A stretch of DNA of 64,000 nt from a virus (IMGVR_UViG_3300012933_000388:1-64000); one strand, 5' to 3'; positions 2,662-43,455 are shown, numbered from the stretch's first letter. Numbers and translations are program-made. The notes: generated by a model from the sequence alone, not told the origin.

Positions 2662-3277
2662 ACTTCGACCCGAGTACAACAATAATGTGCTCGGGAGTAG
2701 TCATAGCAACACACCAACCAGCTGCATTAGTGAACCCAGTCTTTGACACAGTAACATGGGTAAACTGAGTTAACAGATTATAGTTGGTATTTTGAAGGAG
2801 GGTTAGATGAGCCCTCTTTCCTTTTGGCATAACGGTTTGTACTGTAGGATGAGACGCAGCTCGTATCTCATCAAACTTCATCGCATATGCAATTAGCAGA
2901 GCAACATCCTCAGCAGTCGATATATTCATGCCGAGGCCAGATGGATCAATGAACCTAGTATTGGACATACCAAGCTGTCGAGCTCTAAAGTTCATAGCCT
3001 GGATGAATTTATCGCGACCATATGTTGCTGCGATCGCCTCAGCGGACTTATTATTGCTTTGCACTAGCATGGTGTCGATCAGGTAACGATCGTCGACTCC
3101 CAACTCCAAAGCAACAATTGCCGTCATCAGCTTAGTGATGCTAGCTAGTGGTCTTTGTTGGGATGAATCTTGTTCTACTACTACTTTGTTGTGTCGTATG
3201 TCATATACGAGAATCGATTCCTTGGCTTGCAAGGCTGTAGCGAAAAACAATGAGAAGATGATTAGAAGTCTTTTCAT
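2570..3277 (-). CDS. secreted D-alanyl-D-alanine carboxypeptidase/endopeptidase (peptidase S11, low-MW PBP)
   Basis: Signal peptide MKRLLIIFSLFFATALQA. SxxK (SITK), SxN (SNN) and KTG (SKTGFT) active-site triad. Confidence 0.8.
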   Translation of the reverse strand: MKRLLIIFSLFFATALQAKESILVYDIRHNKVVVEQDSSQQRPLASITKLMTAIVALELGVDDRYLIDTMLVQSNNKSAEAIAATYGRDKFIQAMNFRARQLGMSNTRFIDPSGLGMNISTAEDVALLIAYAMKFDEIRAASHPTVQTVMPKGKRAHLTLLQNTNYNLLTQFTHVTVSKTGFTNAAGWCVAMTTPEHIIVVLGSKSKAARYDLAKKLIQDHTMATRPKQIDLAFL

Positions 3278-24105: not shown

Positions 24106-24372
24106 ATGAACGGAAAAATCTTTGTCATAGCTGGTACCTATGATCAATTCAATATATTTCGCAGAACACTTGCAGGTACGATGATTGAGGAAAATATCGA
24201 TGTTCGTCTAAACGACATTGTGTACGTTCACAGCGACAACTTGTATGGGTATGAAGACATCTGGGGATACAAAGTCGGGACTTGGCAACAACGAAAAGAC
24301 ATTGATGTTATTTGCATGATGTTGCTCGCCTGCCGAAGCTCAATTGATAATTTTATTGAGGTTGAATTATGA
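24106..24372 (+). CDS. hypothetical protein
   Basis: RBS AAGGA. Confidence 0.5.
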   Translation: MNGKIFVIAGTYDQFNIFRRTLAGTMIEENIDVRLNDIVYVHSDNLYGYEDIWGYKVGTWQQRKDIDVICMMLLACRSSIDNFIEVEL

Positions 24373-25097
24373 AACAACTATACTCACACGAAGTACCAAG
24401 ATGGATGAGAATGCTTGGCGTGACTCGAGTACATAAAGAGTCAATCGATTTCAAATGGGGATACTTTGCTCCTCGTCCATCATTTCAGCTACTATTACAT
24501 CGTGGTGGATACTTTGATTCGCGATATGCTATCAGTATTGCACTAGGCTATGGTGTGTTCCACTTCTACCTTCCGTTCAAAACCAAGCTGAAAGAAGGTT
24601 GTGATTTACCACAGTATGGTATTCATATTCATGGTGATACGTTTTGGATAATGATCGGTGGCGATTATGATGAATCAATTGGTCAGGTTCAGGGTAAGAC
24701 GTGGATTACATGGGACCTACCATTCTTCAGCTATGAGTTCGATGGCCATTGGGTCAAAGACAAACAGCAGCGTTGGGCGCTGATGAAGAACTTTGAATCA
24801 TACGAATTCAAAAAGGATCAAGCATACAAAGAGCAACATCCGTTTACCTATGTTCTCAAAAACGGTACAATACAGGAAAGAACTGCGACTTGTACTATTG
24901 AGAAGCGTAAGTGGCATCGTAAGTGGTTTCCATGGCTGACCCGGGTCAGTGAAGTGATTGATGTTGAGTTCTCTGATGAGGTCGGCGAACGGTCGGGAAG
25001 CTGGAAGGGTGGAACGATTGGGTGTAGCTATGAGCTCGAGCCAGGTGATACGATTGAGAGTTGCCTAAGACGAATGGAAAAGGAAAGAAACTTTTAA
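24369..25097 (+). CDS. hypothetical protein (242 aa)
   Basis: ATGA overlap. Trp/Lys-rich with no motif I recognise. Confidence 0.6.
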   Translation: MKQLYSHEVPRWMRMLGVTRVHKESIDFKWGYFAPRPSFQLLLHRGGYFDSRYAISIALGYGVFHFYLPFKTKLKEGCDLPQYGIHIHGDTFWIMIGGDYDESIGQVQGKTWITWDLPFFSYEFDGHWVKDKQQRWALMKNFESYEFKKDQAYKEQHPFTYVLKNGTIQERTATCTIEKRKWHRKWFPWLTRVSEVIDVEFSDEVGERSGSWKGGTIGCSYELEPGDTIESCLRRMEKERNF

Positions 25098-25786: not shown

Positions 25787-26010
25787 TGTGGAACGATGAA
25801 GAATTAACCCAAGAAGAACAAAATGCACAATATCTGCAAGACAATCCGCATGTTGAATCTGGGTTGTGGGCAGAGTGGGTAGGGGTTGTATGTGGGTGGG
25901 ATAAGATTCCAACACCTACATCAGAAGAATGGACTAAGTTAAAAGCAAACTTCTATCATGGCAAGGCGCCGATAGAATCGGTTGCTGAATTAAAAAAGAT
26001 GCGGGGTTGA
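25783..26010 (+). CDS. hypothetical protein
   Basis: ATGA overlap. Confidence 0.5.
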   Translation: MMWNDEELTQEEQNAQYLQDNPHVESGLWAEWVGVVCGWDKIPTPTSEEWTKLKANFYHGKAPIESVAELKKMRG

Positions 26011-26013
26011 ATA

Positions 26014-26211
26014 ATGAAGTATAATGTAAAGAAGTTCCATGCTATCCTAGCAAAGGCACATTTGGAGATTGGTCCAAATGCAGATACAACGGCTTTGGCG
26101 GATAAGTTTGCTGAGTTGCTTGTGAGAGAATGTATCGATGTGTTATCGGAAGACGATGGGGCTACTCATCACGAGCAGTTGTTGCTCAATCATTTTGGAG
26201 TGAAACAATGA
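26014..26211 (+). CDS. FAELLxxEC paralog family protein
   Basis: LADKFAELLVRECIDVL...LLNHFGVKQ. Confidence 0.6.
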   Translation: MKYNVKKFHAILAKAHLEIGPNADTTALADKFAELLVRECIDVLSEDDGATHHEQLLLNHFGVKQ

Positions 26212-26336
26212 CATCAGCTCAATTCATGTGTATTATCGGGACAATCTACTTGGTTCCTGATATGAGTAAGGAATACCGGGCATTTGCCGGTATTGTATGT
26301 TTTGTTGTTGCTATTGTGACGGAATTCTTATCGTGA
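26208..26336 (+). CDS. small membrane protein (42 aa)
   Basis: ATGA overlap. Two short hydrophobic segments. Confidence 0.35.
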   Translation: MTSAQFMCIIGTIYLVPDMSKEYRAFAGIVCFVVAIVTEFLS

Positions 26337-26503
26337 CAGAGCAACAAATCATTGATACATACAACAAGATGGTAGCGCACTATGGTGATATGCTACCGAA
26401 TCCAGAACATTGCCCTAAGGAATTTCAATATTATGTCAAACTCTTCGCATACACTGAGAACGCTAATTCTGGAGAGAATCAAGCATATTCGGCCAACAGT
26501 TAA
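26333..26503 (+). CDS. hypothetical protein (GTG start)
   Basis: GTGA overlap with the upstream stop. Overlaps the next candidate in another frame. Confidence 0.35.
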   Translation: MTEQQIIDTYNKMVAHYGDMLPNPEHCPKEFQYYVKLFAYTENANSGENQAYSANS

Positions 26504-26606
26504 TCTATCAGACTTTGATGATCATGGAGACCGTGATCTGTTGGATGATTTTGAAGAGATCCTGACTGAGTATATTGAGCAACAGAGGATAGCTGACGCT
26601 GAATAA
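26433..26606 (+). CDS. hypothetical acidic protein
   Basis: ATG 26433. Overlaps 26333-26503 by 71 nt in another frame, and only one of the two may be real. Confidence 0.35.
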   Translation: MSNSSHTLRTLILERIKHIRPTVNLSDFDDHGDRDLLDDFEEILTEYIEQQRIADAE

Positions 26607-26613
26607 ACAGCAC

Positions 26614-27141
26614 TCAATATCTTCTTAGATAGTCCTTAACCTCAGGACTTCTACCCCATACCCAGCCTTCGGGTAATTCGCGCTTTCGCCCCTCTGATCC
26701 AGTAATAGGATGATGACACCACTTCAATCCAGTCGTAGTCGGCTTACCCATACGAGCCATGGCAACAAGAGCCTTACCCATAGCAGACTTACGACTTCCC
26801 CTAGCATTACTAGGCTTACCACGCTTAGCAATAGCCATCTTCGCCTTAGTCTCATCAGACATAGTCTTACCGGTATTAGCTAACTTAACAGCAGCAACCA
26901 TCTTCATCTTCTCATCTTCAGTGAAGTATTTCCATCCCCACTTCTTCTTTACAATAGCATCCTCATAGACATCAGAGACATTATATTGCTTCTTGAGACG
27001 ATCAATAACACTAGCATAATTGCCAGAATCTTTGATCATTGCTACCTTTTCCCATGCCCGACCATGATCGTTGTAAAATTGTTTATCGCCCTTATCGGAC
27101 GTTCTGAGCGTTCTATCCCGGAGGTAAACAGTGATAAGCAT
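26614..27141 (-). CDS. homing-endonuclease-like DNA-binding protein (NUMOD3-type repeats), no recognisable nuclease domain
   Basis: Opposite strand to the surrounding array. GKTMSDETKAKMAIAKRGKP and GSRKSAMGKALVAMARMGKP NUMOD3-like repeats, plus a C-terminal LPEGWVWGR tail as in T4 Seg/Mob proteins. No GIY-YIG or HNH motif is visible. Confidence 0.5.
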   Translation of the reverse strand: MLITVYLRDRTLRTSDKGDKQFYNDHGRAWEKVAMIKDSGNYASVIDRLKKQYNVSDVYEDAIVKKKWGWKYFTEDEKMKMVAAVKLANTGKTMSDETKAKMAIAKRGKPSNARGSRKSAMGKALVAMARMGKPTTTGLKWCHHPITGSEGRKRELPEGWVWGRSPEVKDYLRRY

Positions 27142-27232
27142 ACGTATATTCCATAATTGATTAATCCTAATATATAGGAAACAATGTATTTTTATGAGAA
27201 ATACTCGTATTACTTCTTGCAGATATTAATAC

Positions 27233-27253
27233 CGCATCTTAAACTAGTATGTA
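27233..27253. repeat. 21-nt direct repeat copy 1 (CGCATCTTAAACTAGTATGTA)
   Basis: Repeated at 27306-27326 with one mismatch and 73-nt spacing. Lies in ORF-free DNA upstream of the minus-strand HEG-like gene. Confidence 0.8.
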
Positions 27254-27305
27254 CGGGAATATAGAATGATGTGCGGGAAAATAGTTCAGTCGTACAGTAT
27301 ATGCG

Positions 27306-27326
27306 CGCGTCTTAAACTAGTATGTA
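27306..27326. repeat. 21-nt direct repeat copy 2 (CGCGTCTTAAACTAGTATGTA)
   Basis: See copy 1. Confidence 0.8.
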
Positions 27327-27370
27327 GCCCCTGCAGTCGACTCTAGGGATAGACCAAAGTGGTCCAGCAA

Positions 27371-27628
27371 TCAGCAGTAGTTCGCTTCACATAGCAGGAA
27401 AGACTCCTCCATAACTGCATCCAAGTCAACGCTAGGCTGTGTCATCATTAGCTGGCAGAGTACGCGCGGAAAGATGTAGCATGTTTGTGTCCCGTGTAGC
27501 TCAGTGCATGACACTAAGTCAGCAGGCAGCTTCTTTACAGTGAAAACGCTACCAGCCTTTAGTGTTAACGTGTTGCTGATTTTGTGTTCAGTTTTCAGCG
27601 TTGAGTACCAAATTTTAGCCATATTCAT
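27371..27628 (-). CDS. hypothetical protein
   Basis: Minus-strand ORF with AAGGATGA SD region, downstream of minus-strand promoter 27748-27776. Confidence 0.45.
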   Translation of the reverse strand: MNMAKIWYSTLKTEHKISNTLTLKAGSVFTVKKLPADLVSCTELHGTQTCYIFPRVLCQLMMTQPSVDLDAVMEESFLLCEANYC

Positions 27629-27660
27629 CCTTGTTCAGTCAAAAGTGCCAGTTTCATTCT

Positions 27661-27686
27661 GGAAACAAAATAGCCACTCTGCCCCC
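27661..27686. repeat. GGAAACAAAA-nn-GCCA-n-GCCCCC motif copy 1
   Basis: GGAAACAAAATAGCCACTCTGCCCCC. Related copies are at 27695-27717 and 29752-29777. Confidence 0.7.
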
Positions 27687-27694
27687 ACAAACCT

Positions 27695-27717
27695 GGAAAC
27701 AAAAGCGCCACTGATCC
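27695..27717. repeat. GGAAACAAAA motif copy 2
   Basis: GGAAACAAAAGCGCCACTGATCC. Confidence 0.6.
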
Positions 27718-27747
27718 TCGCACTAGTCATGCGATTGAATGAATCCC

Positions 27748-27776
27748 ATTATACCACAGTTTTAGTGTATTGACAA
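27748..27776 (-). promoter_or_regulatory. sigma70-type promoter with extended -10 (minus strand)
   Basis: Minus strand reads TTGTCA-N17-TATAAT preceded by TGG (TGnTATAAT). About 120-nt leader to ATG 27628. Confidence 0.5.
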
Positions 27777-27803
27777 CTAGCTAGGAATAGCCAATTGCCC
27801 CGT

Positions 27804-28022
27804 TCACTTTGTAGTACTATATGTGTATACGCCAGAAGGCTTACCAAAGATATTATTTCCATACACTTCCACTCTAACGGTCTTGCCATTTCCGAATGGA
27901 TTAATGCCATATTTGAATGCATTTCGGAATGTTTTATAGCCACTGATAATACAGCGGTTATTCATTCCTACCTCATCATAGCTACCATCTGCATTCTGCT
28001 TAGTCACCAAATAGCTAGTCAT
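27804..28022 (-). CDS. hypothetical protein (72 aa)
   Basis: AAGGAG SD 9 nt upstream of ATG 28022. The ORF-track N-terminal extension was rejected. Confidence 0.55.
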   Translation of the reverse strand: MTSYLVTKQNADGSYDEVGMNNRCIISGYKTFRNAFKYGINPFGNGKTVRVEVYGNNIFGKPSGVYTYSTTK

Positions 28023-28026
28023 TGAT

Positions 28027-28146
28027 TCATTCTCCTTCAAATGCATTGTCGCCATATGTGTCAAACTCAGTACCCTGGTTAGCCCAATAGTCGTACTCTT
28101 CACACAGTGCCACTAATTCTTCCAACTCTTGATCGATATTGCTCAT
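28027..28146 (-). CDS. small acidic protein (39 aa)
   Basis: Starts 1 nt after the stop of 28147-28317. MSNIDQELEELVALCEEYDYWANQGTEFDTYGDNAFEGE. Confidence 0.35.
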   Translation of the reverse strand: MSNIDQELEELVALCEEYDYWANQGTEFDTYGDNAFEGE

Positions 28147-28317
28147 TTACTTCCCCTGGTTATAAATGTCGTTTTCTAAATCACAAAACAGCGATTCAGT
28201 GCCATTGACTAGATCTAGTTCACTTTCATCGAAAATGCCTAATCTTTTGCCATGCCAAATCATTCCGAGAACTAACGAGACTTGCTGCTCGTTTAGTGTT
28301 ACTGTGATCTCTTTCAT
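28147..28317 (-). CDS. small hypothetical protein (56 aa)
   Basis: AGGAGA SD 5 nt upstream. First gene after minus-strand promoter 28340-28368. Confidence 0.45.
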   Translation of the reverse strand: MKEITVTLNEQQVSLVLGMIWHGKRLGIFDESELDLVNGTESLFCDLENDIYNQGK

Positions 28318-28339
28318 CGTTATCTCCTATTGAACCACG

Positions 28340-28368
28340 ATTATCTGACAAAAACGAAAGTTGGTCAA
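28340..28368 (-). promoter_or_regulatory. early promoter cassette, minus strand
   Basis: Minus strand reads TTGACC-N17-GATAAT (ttgaccaactttcgtttttgtcagataat), the same family as the plus-strand cassettes. Confidence 0.55.
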
Positions 28369-28528
28369 CATAGGCGATTAGTATCAGACTGAGCTGTACG
28401 CTTATTCTAAAAGTCATTTGTCCGCAGCCGCCGTCCACCCCAGTTGCTTTCGAATGACCCTATTATACATGGTTTTGGGAAGTCGGCAACTAGGCTGTAA
28501 GTATCAGACTAGAGTTGAAGGGTACTGG

Positions 28529-28557
28529 TTGTACAAATTCCAAAACTATTGTACAAT
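28529..28557 (+). promoter_or_regulatory. early promoter cassette (island variant)
   Basis: TTGTAC-N17-TACAAT, spacer aaattccaaaactattg. Confidence 0.5.
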
Positions 28558-28578
28558 AGTGTTTTAGGAGATAAAAAA

Positions 28579-28917
28579 ATGAATAAAGTTGTTTTTGGTT
28601 TTGGTGTGAGTGTTGATTTTATTAAAAAGAATGTTGATTTTGATTTTGAATTTGAGGGTAGTGGTGTATATGAGTTTGTTGGTGGTAGTGGTGAAATATA
28701 TGGTTATGAGAAGATTAGTAATAATAATGAAGTTGAATTGATGAATGTGGATGATATTCTAAATTCTATTGTTGATGAAGATTTTAGTGAAAAAGATATT
28801 AACAAATTGAAAGAGTTTGTTTTTAGTGATTTTGATGATGATTTGGGTTGTGAGAAAATGAGGTATGTTTGTTGTTATGGTGAGGATGATTTTAGAGAAT
28901 ATTATTATGTGAAATAA
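28579..28917 (+). CDS. acidic hypothetical protein encoded by a nearly C-free ORF
   Basis: TAGGAG SD then ATG 28579. Only 3 cytosines in the ORF, and the product lacks A, P, T, H and Q. N-terminal MNKVVFGFGV resembles 29337 and 30209 ORF products. Confidence 0.55.
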   Translation: MNKVVFGFGVSVDFIKKNVDFDFEFEGSGVYEFVGGSGEIYGYEKISNNNEVELMNVDDILNSIVDEDFSEKDINKLKEFVFSDFDDDLGCEKMRYVCCYGEDDFREYYYVK

Positions 28918-28923
28918 TAACAT

Positions 28924-28980
28924 ACTAAAATGTAAGCTTATTTTAAAAAAGTTGTACAAAATTGAAATTTGTATTATAAT
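28924..28980 (+). repeat. 57-nt direct repeat copy 1 containing promoter TTGTAC-N17-TATAAT (28952-28980)
   Basis: actaaaatgtaagcttattttaaaaaagttgtacaaaattgaaatttgtattataat is almost identical to 29246-29303. Confidence 0.8.
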
Positions 28981-29025
28981 ATATTTGTAATTTGATAAAA
29001 TGTAAACTTTTTAAAAGGGGATAGT

Positions 29026-29208
29026 ATGAAAGTAGCAAAAGTTGTGTTGAACATTGAAGTGTCAATTAATGAAAATGATTATAATGATTTGATGGCAAAT
29101 TTGAAAGATGTTTGTGGGTTGACTAATAAGTGTGACTTAGAAAATTATATTAGTGATGGTTTAGTGTATGATATTGAGAAAAATAATAGTAAGTTTTTGT
29201 TTGATTAA
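29026..29208 (+). CDS. acidic hypothetical protein (C-poor ORF)
   Basis: AAGGGGA SD. 6 cytosines in 183 nt. Confidence 0.5.
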   Translation: MKVAKVVLNIEVSINENDYNDLMANLKDVCGLTNKCDLENYISDGLVYDIEKNNSKFLFD

Positions 29209-29214
29209 AAGTGG

Positions 29215-29238
29215 GAGGGACACGAAAGTGTCCTTTCT
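29215..29238 (+). terminator. rho-independent terminator
   Basis: GGGACAC-gaaa-GTGTCC followed by tttct. Confidence 0.55.
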
Positions 29239-29245
29239 ATACTTT

Positions 29246-29303
29246 ACTAAAATGTAAGCTTATTTGAAAAAAAGTTGTACAAAATTGAAATTTGTATTAT
29301 AAT
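29246..29303 (+). repeat. 58-nt direct repeat copy 2 containing promoter TTGTAC-N17-TATAAT (29275-29303)
   Basis: Differs from copy 1 by one substitution and one extra A. Confidence 0.8.
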
Positions 29304-29336
29304 TGGTTTTCTGTTTAAATGAAAAAGGAATTTGAA

Positions 29337-29714
29337 ATGAATACAAAAGTGTTTAGTTTTGGTGTGGATGAAGATTCGTTAACTTTTGAAACAGAATTTG
29401 ATTCTTTAGAGTCTTATTTTAAAGTGGAAGGAATTCGCTATTGTGGCTATTTCTTAGACAAATATAATACTGAGGTAGTCAATAGTGTTACTGTTCAAGA
29501 TAAAGAGGAACTTTTTGATTATGATGAAGGTGAGTTAGAATTAGCTAAGTTTGATGAAATGGTAGCTAAGTATGATTCATTTTTGAAAAATAATAGTGAT
29601 TATGTGTTAGTCAATTATTGTATTGAATATGATATTTCTTGGATATTAATGAGTAAAGCTGATTATGCTAAGTTTTTAGAATTGTGTGAACTAGAAGTAG
29701 CAAACGAAGAATAA
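29337..29714 (+). CDS. acidic hypothetical protein, paralog of 28579-28917
   Basis: AAAAGGAA SD then ATG 29337. MNTKVFSFGVDEDS parallels MNKVVFGFGVSVDF. Confidence 0.55.
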   Translation: MNTKVFSFGVDEDSLTFETEFDSLESYFKVEGIRYCGYFLDKYNTEVVNSVTVQDKEELFDYDEGELELAKFDEMVAKYDSFLKNNSDYVLVNYCIEYDISWILMSKADYAKFLELCELEVANEE

Positions 29715-29718
29715 AATT

Positions 29719-29742
29719 GGGAACCGAAAGGTTCCCTTTTTT
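29719..29742 (+). terminator. rho-independent terminator
   Basis: GGGAACC-gaaa-GGTTCCC followed by tttttt. Confidence 0.75.
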
Positions 29743-29751
29743 ATCTCTATC

Positions 29752-29777
29752 GGAAACAAAAGTGCCAATCGCCCCCG
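29752..29777. repeat. GGAAACAAAA motif copy 3
   Basis: GGAAACAAAAGTGCCAATCGCCCCC, in the same orientation as copies at 27661 and 27695. Confidence 0.7.
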
Positions 29778-29810
29778 GCCGAGTAAGCTTACACTTTGAT
29801 TGGTTATTGG

Positions 29811-29839
29811 TTGACCAAATTCCAAAACTGTGTGATAAT
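29811..29839 (+). promoter_or_regulatory. early promoter cassette
   Basis: TTGACC-N17-GATAAT, preceded by ttggttattgg. Confidence 0.6.
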
Positions 29840-29868
29840 TCAGTCATCGATTAAATGAAAGGTCTGTT

Positions 29869-30132
29869 ATGACAAAGTTTTTGGTTGAGGTTGTTTCGAT
29901 TGAAGATGGTGAGTATTATTCTGATAACAATGTTTCTGGATCTACTGTGAATGTGACATTACAACGTGGTAGTGACTTTGCTAGTTGTGATCAGATTTTG
30001 TTTTGGGAAGCAACTGATCAAGAAGAGTTAAACGATCTGTTCGATGAGTGGGTCGATTTGGCTATCGGTGGTGAGGAAGGCTATAGTGCTATGATCACTG
30101 AAAATGGTGTTACAAAAATGTATTCTCAATAA
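29869..30132 (+). CDS. hypothetical acidic early protein
   Basis: Single ORF between two cassettes. SD AAAGG. Confidence 0.6.
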   Translation: MTKFLVEVVSIEDGEYYSDNNVSGSTVNVTLQRGSDFASCDQILFWEATDQEELNDLFDEWVDLAIGGEEGYSAMITENGVTKMYSQ

Positions 30133-30156
30133 GCTTCGGCTTTGTATGGTTATTGG

Positions 30157-30185
30157 TTGACCAAATCGAAATTTGGTCTTATAAT
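30157..30185 (+). promoter_or_regulatory. early promoter cassette
   Basis: TTGACC-N17-TATAAT-AGAGTCA. Spacer dyad GACCAAAT/ATTTGGTC. Confidence 0.7.
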
Positions 30186-30208
30186 AGAGTCATCTAAAGG
30201 AGATCAGT

Positions 30209-30517
30209 ATGTCATTCAAGTTCGGTGTTTCTTACAACTGTGAAGTTGGTAGCAATTGTGTTGGTGGAGCAGATGATGGTTATTACAGCACTGATATGCT
30301 TGGAAACGATTTGGGCAAGATTTGTTTACACATTCAAGCAAAAGAAGCAGATCCTGATATGACATTGGTACTTAACGATGACAACTTCATCGGCGAACAA
30401 TGTTCACAAGGTGGCAAGGTTGTGGCTTATTTTGGCTACGATTATAACGGCGATGGTGAATTCTATCCAACTATCGTGATTTACGAAGATCCTGTCGACA
30501 TTGAGATTATCGAATAA
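30209..30517 (+). CDS. hypothetical acidic early protein
   Basis: AAAGGAG SD. N-terminal MSFKFGVS resembles the island ORFs. Confidence 0.6.
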   Translation: MSFKFGVSYNCEVGSNCVGGADDGYYSTDMLGNDLGKICLHIQAKEADPDMTLVLNDDNFIGEQCSQGGKVVAYFGYDYNGDGEFYPTIVIYEDPVDIEIIE

Positions 30518-42882: not shown

Positions 42883-43025
42883 TGAAAAGCATGAAGCAAG
42901 CAGCTAATTTTAAGATGCGTGGTAGAATTACCATGCGTTGCCATTGCCGCTGCTGCGAGGTTTTTAATCCGAAGTGGGCATATCGTATGAAAATGGCTGC
43001 CAAGGATATAAAAGAATTGTTGTAA
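42882..43025 (+). CDS. small basic Cys-rich protein (47 aa)
   Basis: TAATG junction. CHCRCC motif. Ends immediately before the tmRNA acceptor piece. Confidence 0.35.
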   Translation: MKSMKQAANFKMRGRITMRCHCRCCEVFNPKWAYRMKMAAKDIKELL

Positions 43026-43080
43026 TCCCTTCAAAGAGAAGGACTTCTGGACGCGGGTTCGACTCCCGCCATCTCCACCA
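43026..43080 (+). ncRNA. ssrA: tmRNA acceptor piece (3' half of a permuted ssrA gene); 5' boundary uncertain
   Basis: GCGGG-TTCGACT-CCCGC T-arm, 3' acceptor strand CATCTCC and encoded ACCA (43077-43080). Complementary to GGGGATG at 43219. Confidence 0.8.
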
Positions 43081-43218
43081 AAAGTAATCACCGAAGTGAC
43101 TAGGAATAAAAGCGGTCATCGAGTTAGGGCATCAGGTCAAGACTGTGTTAGTAGTGTGGACAGCCTCCCTAACCGACCACTAAGGCGAGTGGTTGAGAAT
43201 GCAACGATTACTTTTGAT
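43081..43218 (+). other. structured intervening segment of the permuted tmRNA precursor
   Basis: AAAGTAATC (43081-89) pairs with GATTACTTT (43206-14). Internal helices GTTAGGG/CCCTAAC and ACCACT/AGTGGT. Confidence 0.6.
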
Positions 43219-43455
43219 GGGGATGCCATGGTTTCGACAGGGGTAGATATTAGAGACGGCAACACGGTAGGCGATGACCGCAAATCAAGCAAATAAAAGT
43301 AACTGCAAACGAAAGCTCTTACGCATTGGCAGCCTAAACGCTGACTAGGGTTTCGGATGGTTTCCTCGTAACAGAATAACCATCCACTAATATATCAGAC
43401 ACGTTGCCCATTAGAGGCCCTGTATGGTCTAGCAGTACCATCAAAGAAACTGCTA
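43219..43455 (+). ncRNA. ssrA: tmRNA coding piece (5' half of the permuted ssrA gene); 3' boundary uncertain
   Basis: GGGGATGCCATGGTTTCGACAGGGG 5' end. Tag ORF GCAAACGAAAGCTCTTACGCATTGGCAGCCTAA (43305-43337, ANESSYALAA*). Helix 43355-62/43378-85 and H-type pseudoknot 43424-43455. Confidence 0.8.

Follow-up and report, generated by a model that had tools for sequence, protein, structure and literature searches.

A repeated non-coding motif beside a leftward early unit of an uncultured T4-like phage

Two copies of a gapped 25-base motif, GGAAAC..GCCA..GCCCCC, bracket a 2.1-kb block in IMGVR_UViG_3300012933_000388:1-64000, a 64,000-nt stretch of viral DNA (the window, in what follows). Their arrangement raises the question of whether the repeats delimit an inserted module or serve the genes beside them. 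A preliminary description of this DNA had offered both answers, with recombination scars around a foreign-looking block as the first and binding sites for a regulator as the fallback. We conclude that the element is part of the DNA that controls a leftward early transcription unit and forms no boundary of a mobile block. We assign it with high confidence as a cis-regulatory repeat of that unit, and our confidence in any particular mechanism is low. The fuller reading, in which these clade-specific repeats would act through leader structure and/or a bound protein, is a tentative one, to which we give slightly less than an even chance.

The window derives from a T4-like myovirus. Its baseplate proteins gp6, gp7/wedge, and gp8 are ~40% identical to their counterparts in T4-like phages of Sinorhizobium, Caulobacter, and Stenotrophomonas. 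Megablast and blastn searches with the repeat locus and with 24 kb of structural genes returned nothing useful among GenBank phages at the DNA level. The repeat locus sits amid many small early genes, each with a repeated sigma70-type promoter upstream.

Repeat copies and the leftward unit

The copies, designated A to E, and the leftward unit are located as follows.

27637-27655, plus strand: copy A, partial, with the core CAAAAGTGCCA at 27640-27650
27661-27686, plus strand: copy B, full, GGAAACAAAATAGCCACTCTGCCCCC
27695-27717, plus strand: copy C, GGAAACAAAAGCGCCACTGATCC, 34 nt from copy B
27785-27802, plus strand: copy D, partial, GGAATAGCCAATTGCCCC
29752-29776, plus strand: copy E, full, GGAAACAAAAGTGCCAATCGCCCCC
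27776 to 27748, minus strand: leftward sigma70-type promoter, TTGTCA, 17 nt, TATAAT with TG, 11/12 matches
27371-27628, minus strand: 85-aa gene, the first after the leader, with no assigned function and missing from some relatives
26614-27141, minus strand: gene for a 175-aa protein with the NUMOD3 DNA-binding motif, the last gene of the leftward unit

The gapped motif pattern gave two matches in the 64 kb, corresponding to copies B and E, against 0.00 expected from 100 shuffles. The sequence GGAAACAAAANNGCCA gave three exact matches (copies B, C, and E) and, with up to two mismatches allowed, five matches against 0.49 expected. All copies lie on the plus strand and are intergenic, positioned around the consensus leftward promoter or beside a terminator. 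The plus-strand consensus is CTGGAAACAAAAGTGCCACT..CCCCC, and the transcribed-strand core is TRGCAC-TTTTG. The two full same-orientation copies of the preliminary description were borne out, the right one ending at 29776, one base earlier than reported. Its weaker copy and its partial left copy were also recovered, the latter at 27637-27655. A search for further copies added only the partial copy D, with none outside the locus in the 64 kb.

Copies C, B, and A lie downstream of the promoter, within a 113-nt leader that runs to the 85-aa gene, where the left-hand copies had already been placed. Copies B and C form a 34-nt tandem duplication. Copy A reads UGGCACUUUUG on the transcribed minus strand and stands just 5′ of the ribosome-binding site of the 85-aa gene; its core is common to copy E. 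Copy D is upstream of the promoter, between the stop codon of a minus-strand operon (27804) and the promoter −35 hexamer, which is 8 nt away. Copy E was confirmed directly to the right of a bidirectional terminator (29719-29742), the terminator of an AT-rich island. On its other side is the promoter of the next rightward cassette, which resembles those of promoter-early stem-loops (PeSLs), mobile cassettes that carry regulatory sequences in the hyperplastic regions of T4-type phages (Arbiol et al. 2010, PMC2839356; Comeau et al. 2014, PMC4122927). None of the motif copies contains −35 or −10 hexamers, and the promoters are separate, at 27776 to 27748 and 29811-29839. The locus has the feature of an operator or iteron array, namely several short copies in non-coding DNA beside a promoter. 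The start-to-start spacings in the window are 26, 34, and ~90 nt and are not helically phased.

Fragments of at least 12 related phages were available for comparison. L001/L002, one related 222.8-kb IMG/VR contig, was found by an exact-pattern scan. L019-L026, L162, and L165-L176 are Logan, ENA, and JGI contigs of ~63–97% identity, found when the products of three genes (the third of the island, the 56-aa one of the operon, and the NUMOD3 gene) served as search queries. Within 139.5 kb, comprising the window and twelve related loci, GGAAACARAA[GT]NG occurs 24 times, in every case at homologous non-coding places. A motif scan of JGI metagenomes yielded 16 matches, all by chance and with dissimilar flanks, and a scan of 185,579 GTDB reference genomes yielded 15, all in unrelated coding DNA. 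A 16-mer scan of IMG/VR gave single chance matches among those listed. Since the JGI metagenomes and the reference genomes hold only chance matches, the motif is private to this phage clade and is no host repeat.

Copies A–D are orthologous in L019, L022, L023, L165, L168, and L169 taken together. An alignment of six orthologues shows little or no change in the promoter, in copy D, in the core of copy B, and in copy C over its 5′ half, with full invariance of the promoter −10 and its neighboring bases, and the GCCA-GCCCC spacer and the linker between B and C drift in both sequence and length. The copy B spacer reads TCTG, TCG, CTTG, or CG, with both halves of the motif kept. Copy C retains TGGAAACAAAAG and ACTGATCC throughout, and its GCCA is changed to GCTA in four orthologues. 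Copy D is kept in L019, L022, L023, L165, L168, and L169, and L001 has a D-like copy at the same position, upstream of the promoter. Copy A is kept in L019, L023, and L165 and has lost its GCCA in L022; L169 carries copy D and one leader copy beside the ribosome-binding site. Copy E follows the island terminator in L002, L019-L023, and L165-L167, is degenerate in L024 and L026, and is absent from L168. The leader and promoter of L022 are 73–93% identical to those of the window, in comparison with 40–60% for the adjacent body of the 85-aa gene.

We observed a different arrangement in L162, L171, and L174/175, which have the same strong promoter and the NUMOD3 gene and, in place of the 85-aa gene, 650–800 nt free of open reading frames (ORFs). 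In these leaders TRGCAC/TGGCTA-TTT(T), to which the window sequence AAAAGTGCCA corresponds when read on the minus strand, occurs 6–12 times on the same strand, and CTGGAAACAAAAGT occurs once or twice, oppositely oriented. The spacing in L162 is irregular, at 16–38 nt (once 99 nt), and includes a run of 17-nt steps. Over the 20 kb seen of L001, neither the 85-aa gene nor the NUMOD3 gene is present; two of its copies, inverted with respect to each other, form a hairpin with 13 of 14 positions paired. Among the relatives, the copy number ranges from 1 to ~12.

Three other assignments of the motif were considered and rejected. A sigma54-type promoter (minus strand TGGCAC-N5-TTTCC) would lack the −12 GC; four of the six orthologues have GCTA in copy C and so do not keep its GG, and copy E would fire into the terminator. 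A 31-codon upstream ORF covering copies C, B, and A is open in four phages, yet it has no ribosome-binding site, most substitutions alter the amino acid, and a 10-nt deletion in L165 breaks the frame. A short ORF that begins with the copy E GTG is cut short in L023, and in L022 it is shifted.

Within the leftward unit, the 85-aa gene has orthologues of 83–84 aa in L019, L022, L023, and L169. Upstream of the NUMOD3 gene, CATAYWAGTTTAAGAYG occurs twice on the minus strand (27238-27251 and 27311-27324, 73 nt apart). The pair is kept in L001, L162, L169, L171, and L174, with no conservation of the DNA between the two, and it could be a phage-specific promoter or regulatory site.

Joints of the AT-rich island

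The block between copies B and E is made up of two parts, an operon and an island, with the following features.

28317 to 27804, minus strand: three-gene operon (56, 39, and 72 aa) of ordinary composition
28520-28557, plus strand: left-edge promoter of the island, PeSL-type, with 86% identity between its first 28 nt (28520-28547) and 29802-29829
28579-28917, 29026-29208, and 29337-29714, plus strand: three island genes
28918-28980, plus strand: promoter cassette of the island, with a second copy at 29245-29303 that shares 36 identical nt
29719-29742, both strands: intrinsic terminator of the island, bidirectional, with copy E directly to its right
29802-29839, plus strand: PeSL-type promoter of the first regular cassette

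The description of the whole 2.1 kb as foreign-looking held for one part of it. Odd composition is confined to 28.5–29.7 kb (GC 0.30–0.34, GC skew up to 0.43), and the operon half is compositionally ordinary. The minus-strand operon and the divergent promoters at 28340-28557 were as previously described, and the repeats at 28520-28557, 28918-28980, 29245-29303, and 29778-29849 do hold sigma70-like promoters. The composition changes at ~28.5 kb, ~700 nt to the right of copy D; the repeats are not at the boundary of the foreign composition.

Two observations favor the repeats as scars or att-like ends of an inserted 2.1-kb module. Copies in the same orientation flank DNA with a compositionally foreign island inside it, and copy E was lost along with the island in L168. 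This origin nevertheless appears highly improbable from the comparison with the relatives. None of the at least 12 relatives shows the block replaced by a single copy. The block and the copies occur at the same positions on both sides in L001/L002, L019, L022, L023, and L165. The order in L019, L022, L023, and L165 is copies A–D, operon, an island gene, and copy E, as in the window, and L001/L002 carries the D-like copy, the inverted pair, the operon, one island gene, and copy E. The operon half is present in all relatives reaching it, some of which have one extra gene at window position 28040.

The joints of the insertions and deletions point in the same direction. In L019, L020, L022, and L023, window position 28510 joins 29245, so that the two extremely C-poor genes in the missing 28511-29244 are an insertion peculiar to the window; its joints lie in the repeated cassette 28918-28980/29245-29303. 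In L001, 28347 joins 29240. L165-L167 have a different C-poor gene, of 136 aa, in place of the island genes, and homology returns at 29713 with the terminator, copy E, and the promoter. L168, which has no island gene, terminator, or copy E, keeps copies A–D and the operon and continues from 28539 directly into the regular promoter, a junction that fits recombination between the promoter repeats 28520-28547 and 29802-29829. L024 and L026 carry the third island gene in other contexts, with copy E still attached to the terminator and the joint in the promoter to the right. Copy E thus lies within a conserved stretch in L024, L026, and L165, and the joint falls in the promoter on its right or the gene on its left.

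All of these joints (28347/29240, 28510/29245, 28539, 28617/29713, and 29839-29854) fall in a promoter cassette or a gene, and no motif copy contains one. The island has its true left joint at the promoter 28520-28557, 700 nt to the right of the nearest left copy, and its true right joint at the promoter 29802-29839. Since the joints are in promoter repeats, the island is a promoter-bounded cassette array with copy E internal to its right end, and copies A–D belong to another unit. Scans of every ORF at 26.6–30.5 kb with Pfam and PHROGs gave only the NUMOD3 motif and no recombinase or integrase domain.

The AT-rich stretch also bears on the proposal that the repeats are DNA iterons of a replication origin or another protein–DNA assembly site. 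Clustered direct repeats of variable copy number flank a strong promoter in non-coding DNA, a 30%-GC stretch lies 0.8 kb away, and both orientations occur, suiting DNA recognition. We consider iterons very unlikely, because the spacing lacks helical phasing, the AT-rich stretch is protein-coding and is dispensable in L168, where copies A–D remain, the locus has no GC-skew turn beyond the gene strand switch, and no initiator gene was identified.

Several further observations concern the island itself. Its genes are the three most cytosine-poor of the 179 window ORFs, with C counts of 3/339, 6/183, and 26/378 nt and G at 21–26%. The first island protein is without Ala, His, Pro, Gln, Thr, and Trp. 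Five orthologues of the third island gene are equally C-poor, as is the unrelated 136-aa gene that replaces the island genes in L165-L167 (L165 reverse complement 1381-1791). These observations suggest selection for nearly C-free mRNA, beyond mere AT-richness. The island terminator in L023 (2240-2262) keeps the stem GGGAACC/GGTTCCC and has the loop TTTC, the reverse complement of the window loop GAAA, and it looks as if this loop had flipped relative to the window.

To the left of the island, window 28420-28493 holds on the minus strand a promoter (TTGCCG, 16 nt, TATAAT) and, downstream of it, a transcribed stretch of ~40 nt, CATTCGAAAGCAACTGGGGTGGACGGCGGCTGCG. This element shows 93–96% conservation, compared with 40–60% identity in the flanks, and it occurs in every relative covering the region, including L001 (6530-6613, at a different position), L162 (twice, 1238-1310 and 2985-3060), and L169 (330-400). 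In L023, L168, and L169 it is followed by the perfect hairpin CGGTATTCGCGAATACCG. With no Rfam match, the element is a candidate small RNA. As for a tRNA-like reading of the TTCGAA element, ARAGORN gave only a distant tmRNA gene.

That tmRNA gene is predicted at 42988-43428 in the phage sequence, with the tag peptide VTANESSYALAA, and a 49-nt piece of it is 92% identical to Acinetobacter phage BUCT628. The T4 late-promoter box TATAAATA has zero occurrences across the 64 kb, despite the baseplate genes, which means that this clade must have late promoters unlike those of T4. The ORF at 24369-25097, also carried by L022, matches the Acb3 CBASS-inhibitor family (Pfam PF25187, E 1e-55), which places the repeats less than 3 kb from a known type of anti-defense gene. 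About ten small-gene cassettes are permuted between the window (33.5–37.9 kb) and L002 (15.6–19.9 kb), with breakpoints at repeated promoters, a clear example of PeSL-type shuffling.

Leader RNA, possible protein binding, and repeat arrays

The minus-strand RNA of copy B is GGGGGCAGAGUGGCUAUUUUGUUUCC, with the layout GGGGGCAGAG-UGGCUA-UUUUGUUUCC. Its self-folding energy is −9.0 kcal/mol, compared with 0.0 on the plus strand. The corresponding minus-strand values are −3.6 to −5.8 kcal/mol for copy E and about −1.8 kcal/mol for copies C and D, all of which are ~0 on the plus strand. The window leader as a whole folds at −31.4 kcal/mol on the sense strand and −18.6 on the antisense strand. Within it, we identified one hairpin between two copies.

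27661-27713, minus strand: terminator-like C:B leader hairpin, in which UUUUGUUUCC of copy C pairs with GGGGGCAGAG of copy B

The C:B stem has 11 pairs and is G·U-rich; an outer AGUGGC/GCUAUU helix extends it, and UUGUUU follows. A terminator scan flagged the same region (27704 to 27677, 11 pairs, tail UGGCUAUUUU), and the leader therefore has the attenuator feature of a hairpin and U tract between promoter and start codon. The C:B hairpin appears in the minimum-energy fold of five of the six orthologues and in the consensus fold, and the self-hairpin of copy B is the competing fold. The spacer variants AGAG, GAG, AAGG, and GG all retain pairing with the U run.

We propose that the unit is organized as a strong sigma70-type promoter, a leader, an optional 85-aa gene, and the NUMOD3-protein gene, and that the leader copies would hold down the output of this promoter. 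Copy C, through its U-rich half, would pair with the G-rich half of copy B, generating a G·U-rich hairpin and a U tract in the manner of an attenuator, and the self-hairpin of copy B would compete with this fold. A sequence-specific protein may also bind the same sequences; by analogy with I-TevI autorepression, the candidate is the adjacent NUMOD3 protein. Copies D and E might be extra sites, or non-functional paralogues, beside the promoter and the terminator.

Several observations weigh against this proposal. Compensatory changes were found in 0 of 25 consensus pairs among the six orthologues; the changes in the C:B stem are one-sided, most preserving the pair and two breaking it. The window leader is no more stable than shuffled sequence (z about −0.9 to −1.0; fold z −0.98). 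L169 has a single leader copy, and the GGAAA of copy B is lost in L165; C:B pairing is therefore not universal, being impossible in the former and altered in the latter. No leftward transcription is expected at copy E, which by itself forms only a weak hairpin with spacer changes that do not preserve pairing. The GGAAACAAAAGT copies in L162 and L174 are oriented opposite to the core array, and an isolated L162 copy beside a terminator is inverted with respect to window copy E, so that a purely RNA-level role cannot cover all copies. L001 has no NUMOD3 gene in the 20 kb seen, yet it keeps copy E, the D-like copy, and the inverted pair. Finally, whole intergenic stretches are conserved, and the motif is only modestly better kept than its neighbors.

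The conservation of whole intergenic units about as well as the motif would also be expected of neutral paralogues, which is the strongest rival explanation. The copies would have arisen by local duplications and homogenization among recombining intergenic cassettes and would be conserved via kinship or flanking selection. The tandem duplication of B and C and the nil covariation are in line with this origin, as is the decay of copy A (L022), of GCCA in copy C (four orthologues), of copy E (L024 and L026), and of GGAAA in copy B (L165). We nevertheless regard neutral paralogy as unlikely. CTGGAAACAAAAGT and the TRGCAC-TTTT core survive in L162, L171, and L174, where the non-coding surroundings are otherwise hardly alignable and the NUMOD3 protein is just 63–70% identical. 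Copy number has expanded to 6–12 in several lineages, and the spacers drift while both motif halves stay.

For regulation by the repeats, copies D and E and the inverted copies of L162 and L174 are unexplained by RNA alone, and recognition by a protein may thus be involved. The fallback of the preliminary description, binding sites for a regulator, is plausible, and a regulatory role fits better than scars: the motif is conserved in non-coding control DNA throughout the clade, with both halves kept and variable spacers. The NUMOD3 protein family is fixed at 174–177 aa, even at 35% identity. Pfam, PHROGs, a PDB sequence search, and a fold search revealed no nuclease domain in the 175-aa protein, and a nuclease reading (GIY-YIG, HNH) was dropped, as no such domain was recognizable. 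The N-terminal 60 residues are confidently predicted to form a small α/β domain, and the predicted fold of the protein gave no significant structural match. It is possibly the DNA-binding module of a homing endonuclease that has been domesticated. A ribbon-helix-helix regulator, suggested by the sequence of the 56-aa operon protein, was also considered and rejected: its model is a two-helix hairpin (pLDDT 92) with no significant structural or DNA-binding match.

The arrays of the relatives would also be compatible with a decoy or sponge non-coding RNA, in which TRGCAC-UUUU units titrate a host RNA-binding factor or a defense protein or nuclease. With three units here and 6–12 in sister lineages, the copy number would be subject to an arms race, and in the window the short version would have been recruited to serve as the leader of an mRNA. 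In the relatives, 650–900 nt of ORF-free DNA with 6–12 same-strand repeats and a partial 17/34-nt period follow a consensus promoter, the copy number differs between close lineages, and the leaders with arrays are more stably folded than their shuffled counterparts (z −3.4 to −3.7). The early region also holds the Acb3 anti-CBASS gene, and phage antitoxin-mimic repeats provide a precedent (PMC3475682). We judge a decoy RNA, including the arms-race and co-option scenario, to be improbable. No Rfam family, ToxI included, was matched in window 26000-30500 (E ≤ 1) or in L162 1100-4050 and L001 5650-6700 (E ≤ 5). The spacing of 16–38 nt is irregular and gives no clean 34–45-nt tandem array, the window keeps just three copies in an ordinary mRNA leader, and copies D and E are unexplained.

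Comparison with known systems

Our results correct the view of the locus, in that the AT-rich island is a product of ordinary PeSL-type shuffling and the striking repeats are not its ends. They also describe a well-delimited, clade-specific non-coding element in uncultured T4-like phages without a sequenced close relative. If the repeats are operators of the NUMOD3 protein, a homing-endonuclease DNA-binding module would have been domesticated as a regulator. If instead the array RNA is the product, a repeat-type regulatory or anti-defense RNA would be added to those of T4-like phages.

As with PeSLs, the small early genes of the region are each preceded by a sigma70-type promoter that recurs along the array and has a stem-loop next to it. 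Furthermore, the insertions, deletions, replacements, and permutations among the relatives join in promoter repeats, as in PeSL shuffling (PMC2839356, PMC4122927), which fully accounts for the apparent inserted island. The GGAAAC..GCCA..GCCCCC motif differs in that it is without −35 and −10 hexamers and lies beside or downstream of promoters, not at joints. In addition, only copy B forms a respectable stem-loop, on the leftward strand only.

Homing-endonuclease genes of T4 are repressed by upstream terminators, by hairpins, and by operator binding of their own DNA-binding domain (PMC2988022). The repeated conserved sequences in the promoter and leader upstream of a NUMOD3-bearing gene are reminiscent of I-TevI autorepression, and the terminator-like leader hairpin is reminiscent of the control of such genes in T4. 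In contrast to I-TevI, the NUMOD3 protein has no detectable nuclease domain and its family is of fixed length. The putative sites here are many, not one, and lie 0.5–1 kb upstream, and L001 keeps copies without the gene (20 kb seen).

The leader is similar to an attenuator in that it contains three consecutive 5′-leader segments, the middle of which pairs with either neighbor, and one fold is followed by a U tract. It differs from classical examples in its G·U-rich stem, interrupted U tract, nil covariation, stability not significant in comparison with shuffles, and lack of an evident sensing mechanism.

In the relatives, the promoter-driven, ORF-free stretch with many same-strand repeats of variable copy number is analogous to the CsrB sponge, to ToxI, and to pseudo-ToxI, the repeats of which are expanded by phage PhiTE to neutralize a type III toxin (PMC3475682). 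The differences are the absence of a sequence or structure family match, the irregular spacing, and the location of three window copies inside an mRNA leader. Compared with the regular 34–45-nt units of ToxI arrays, copies B and C of the window are 34 nt apart, and L162 has a 17-nt run and is otherwise irregular. Among the known systems, the element is a new, clade-specific example of a familiar class, namely regulatory repeats that are conserved within the hyperplastic early regions of T4-like phages.

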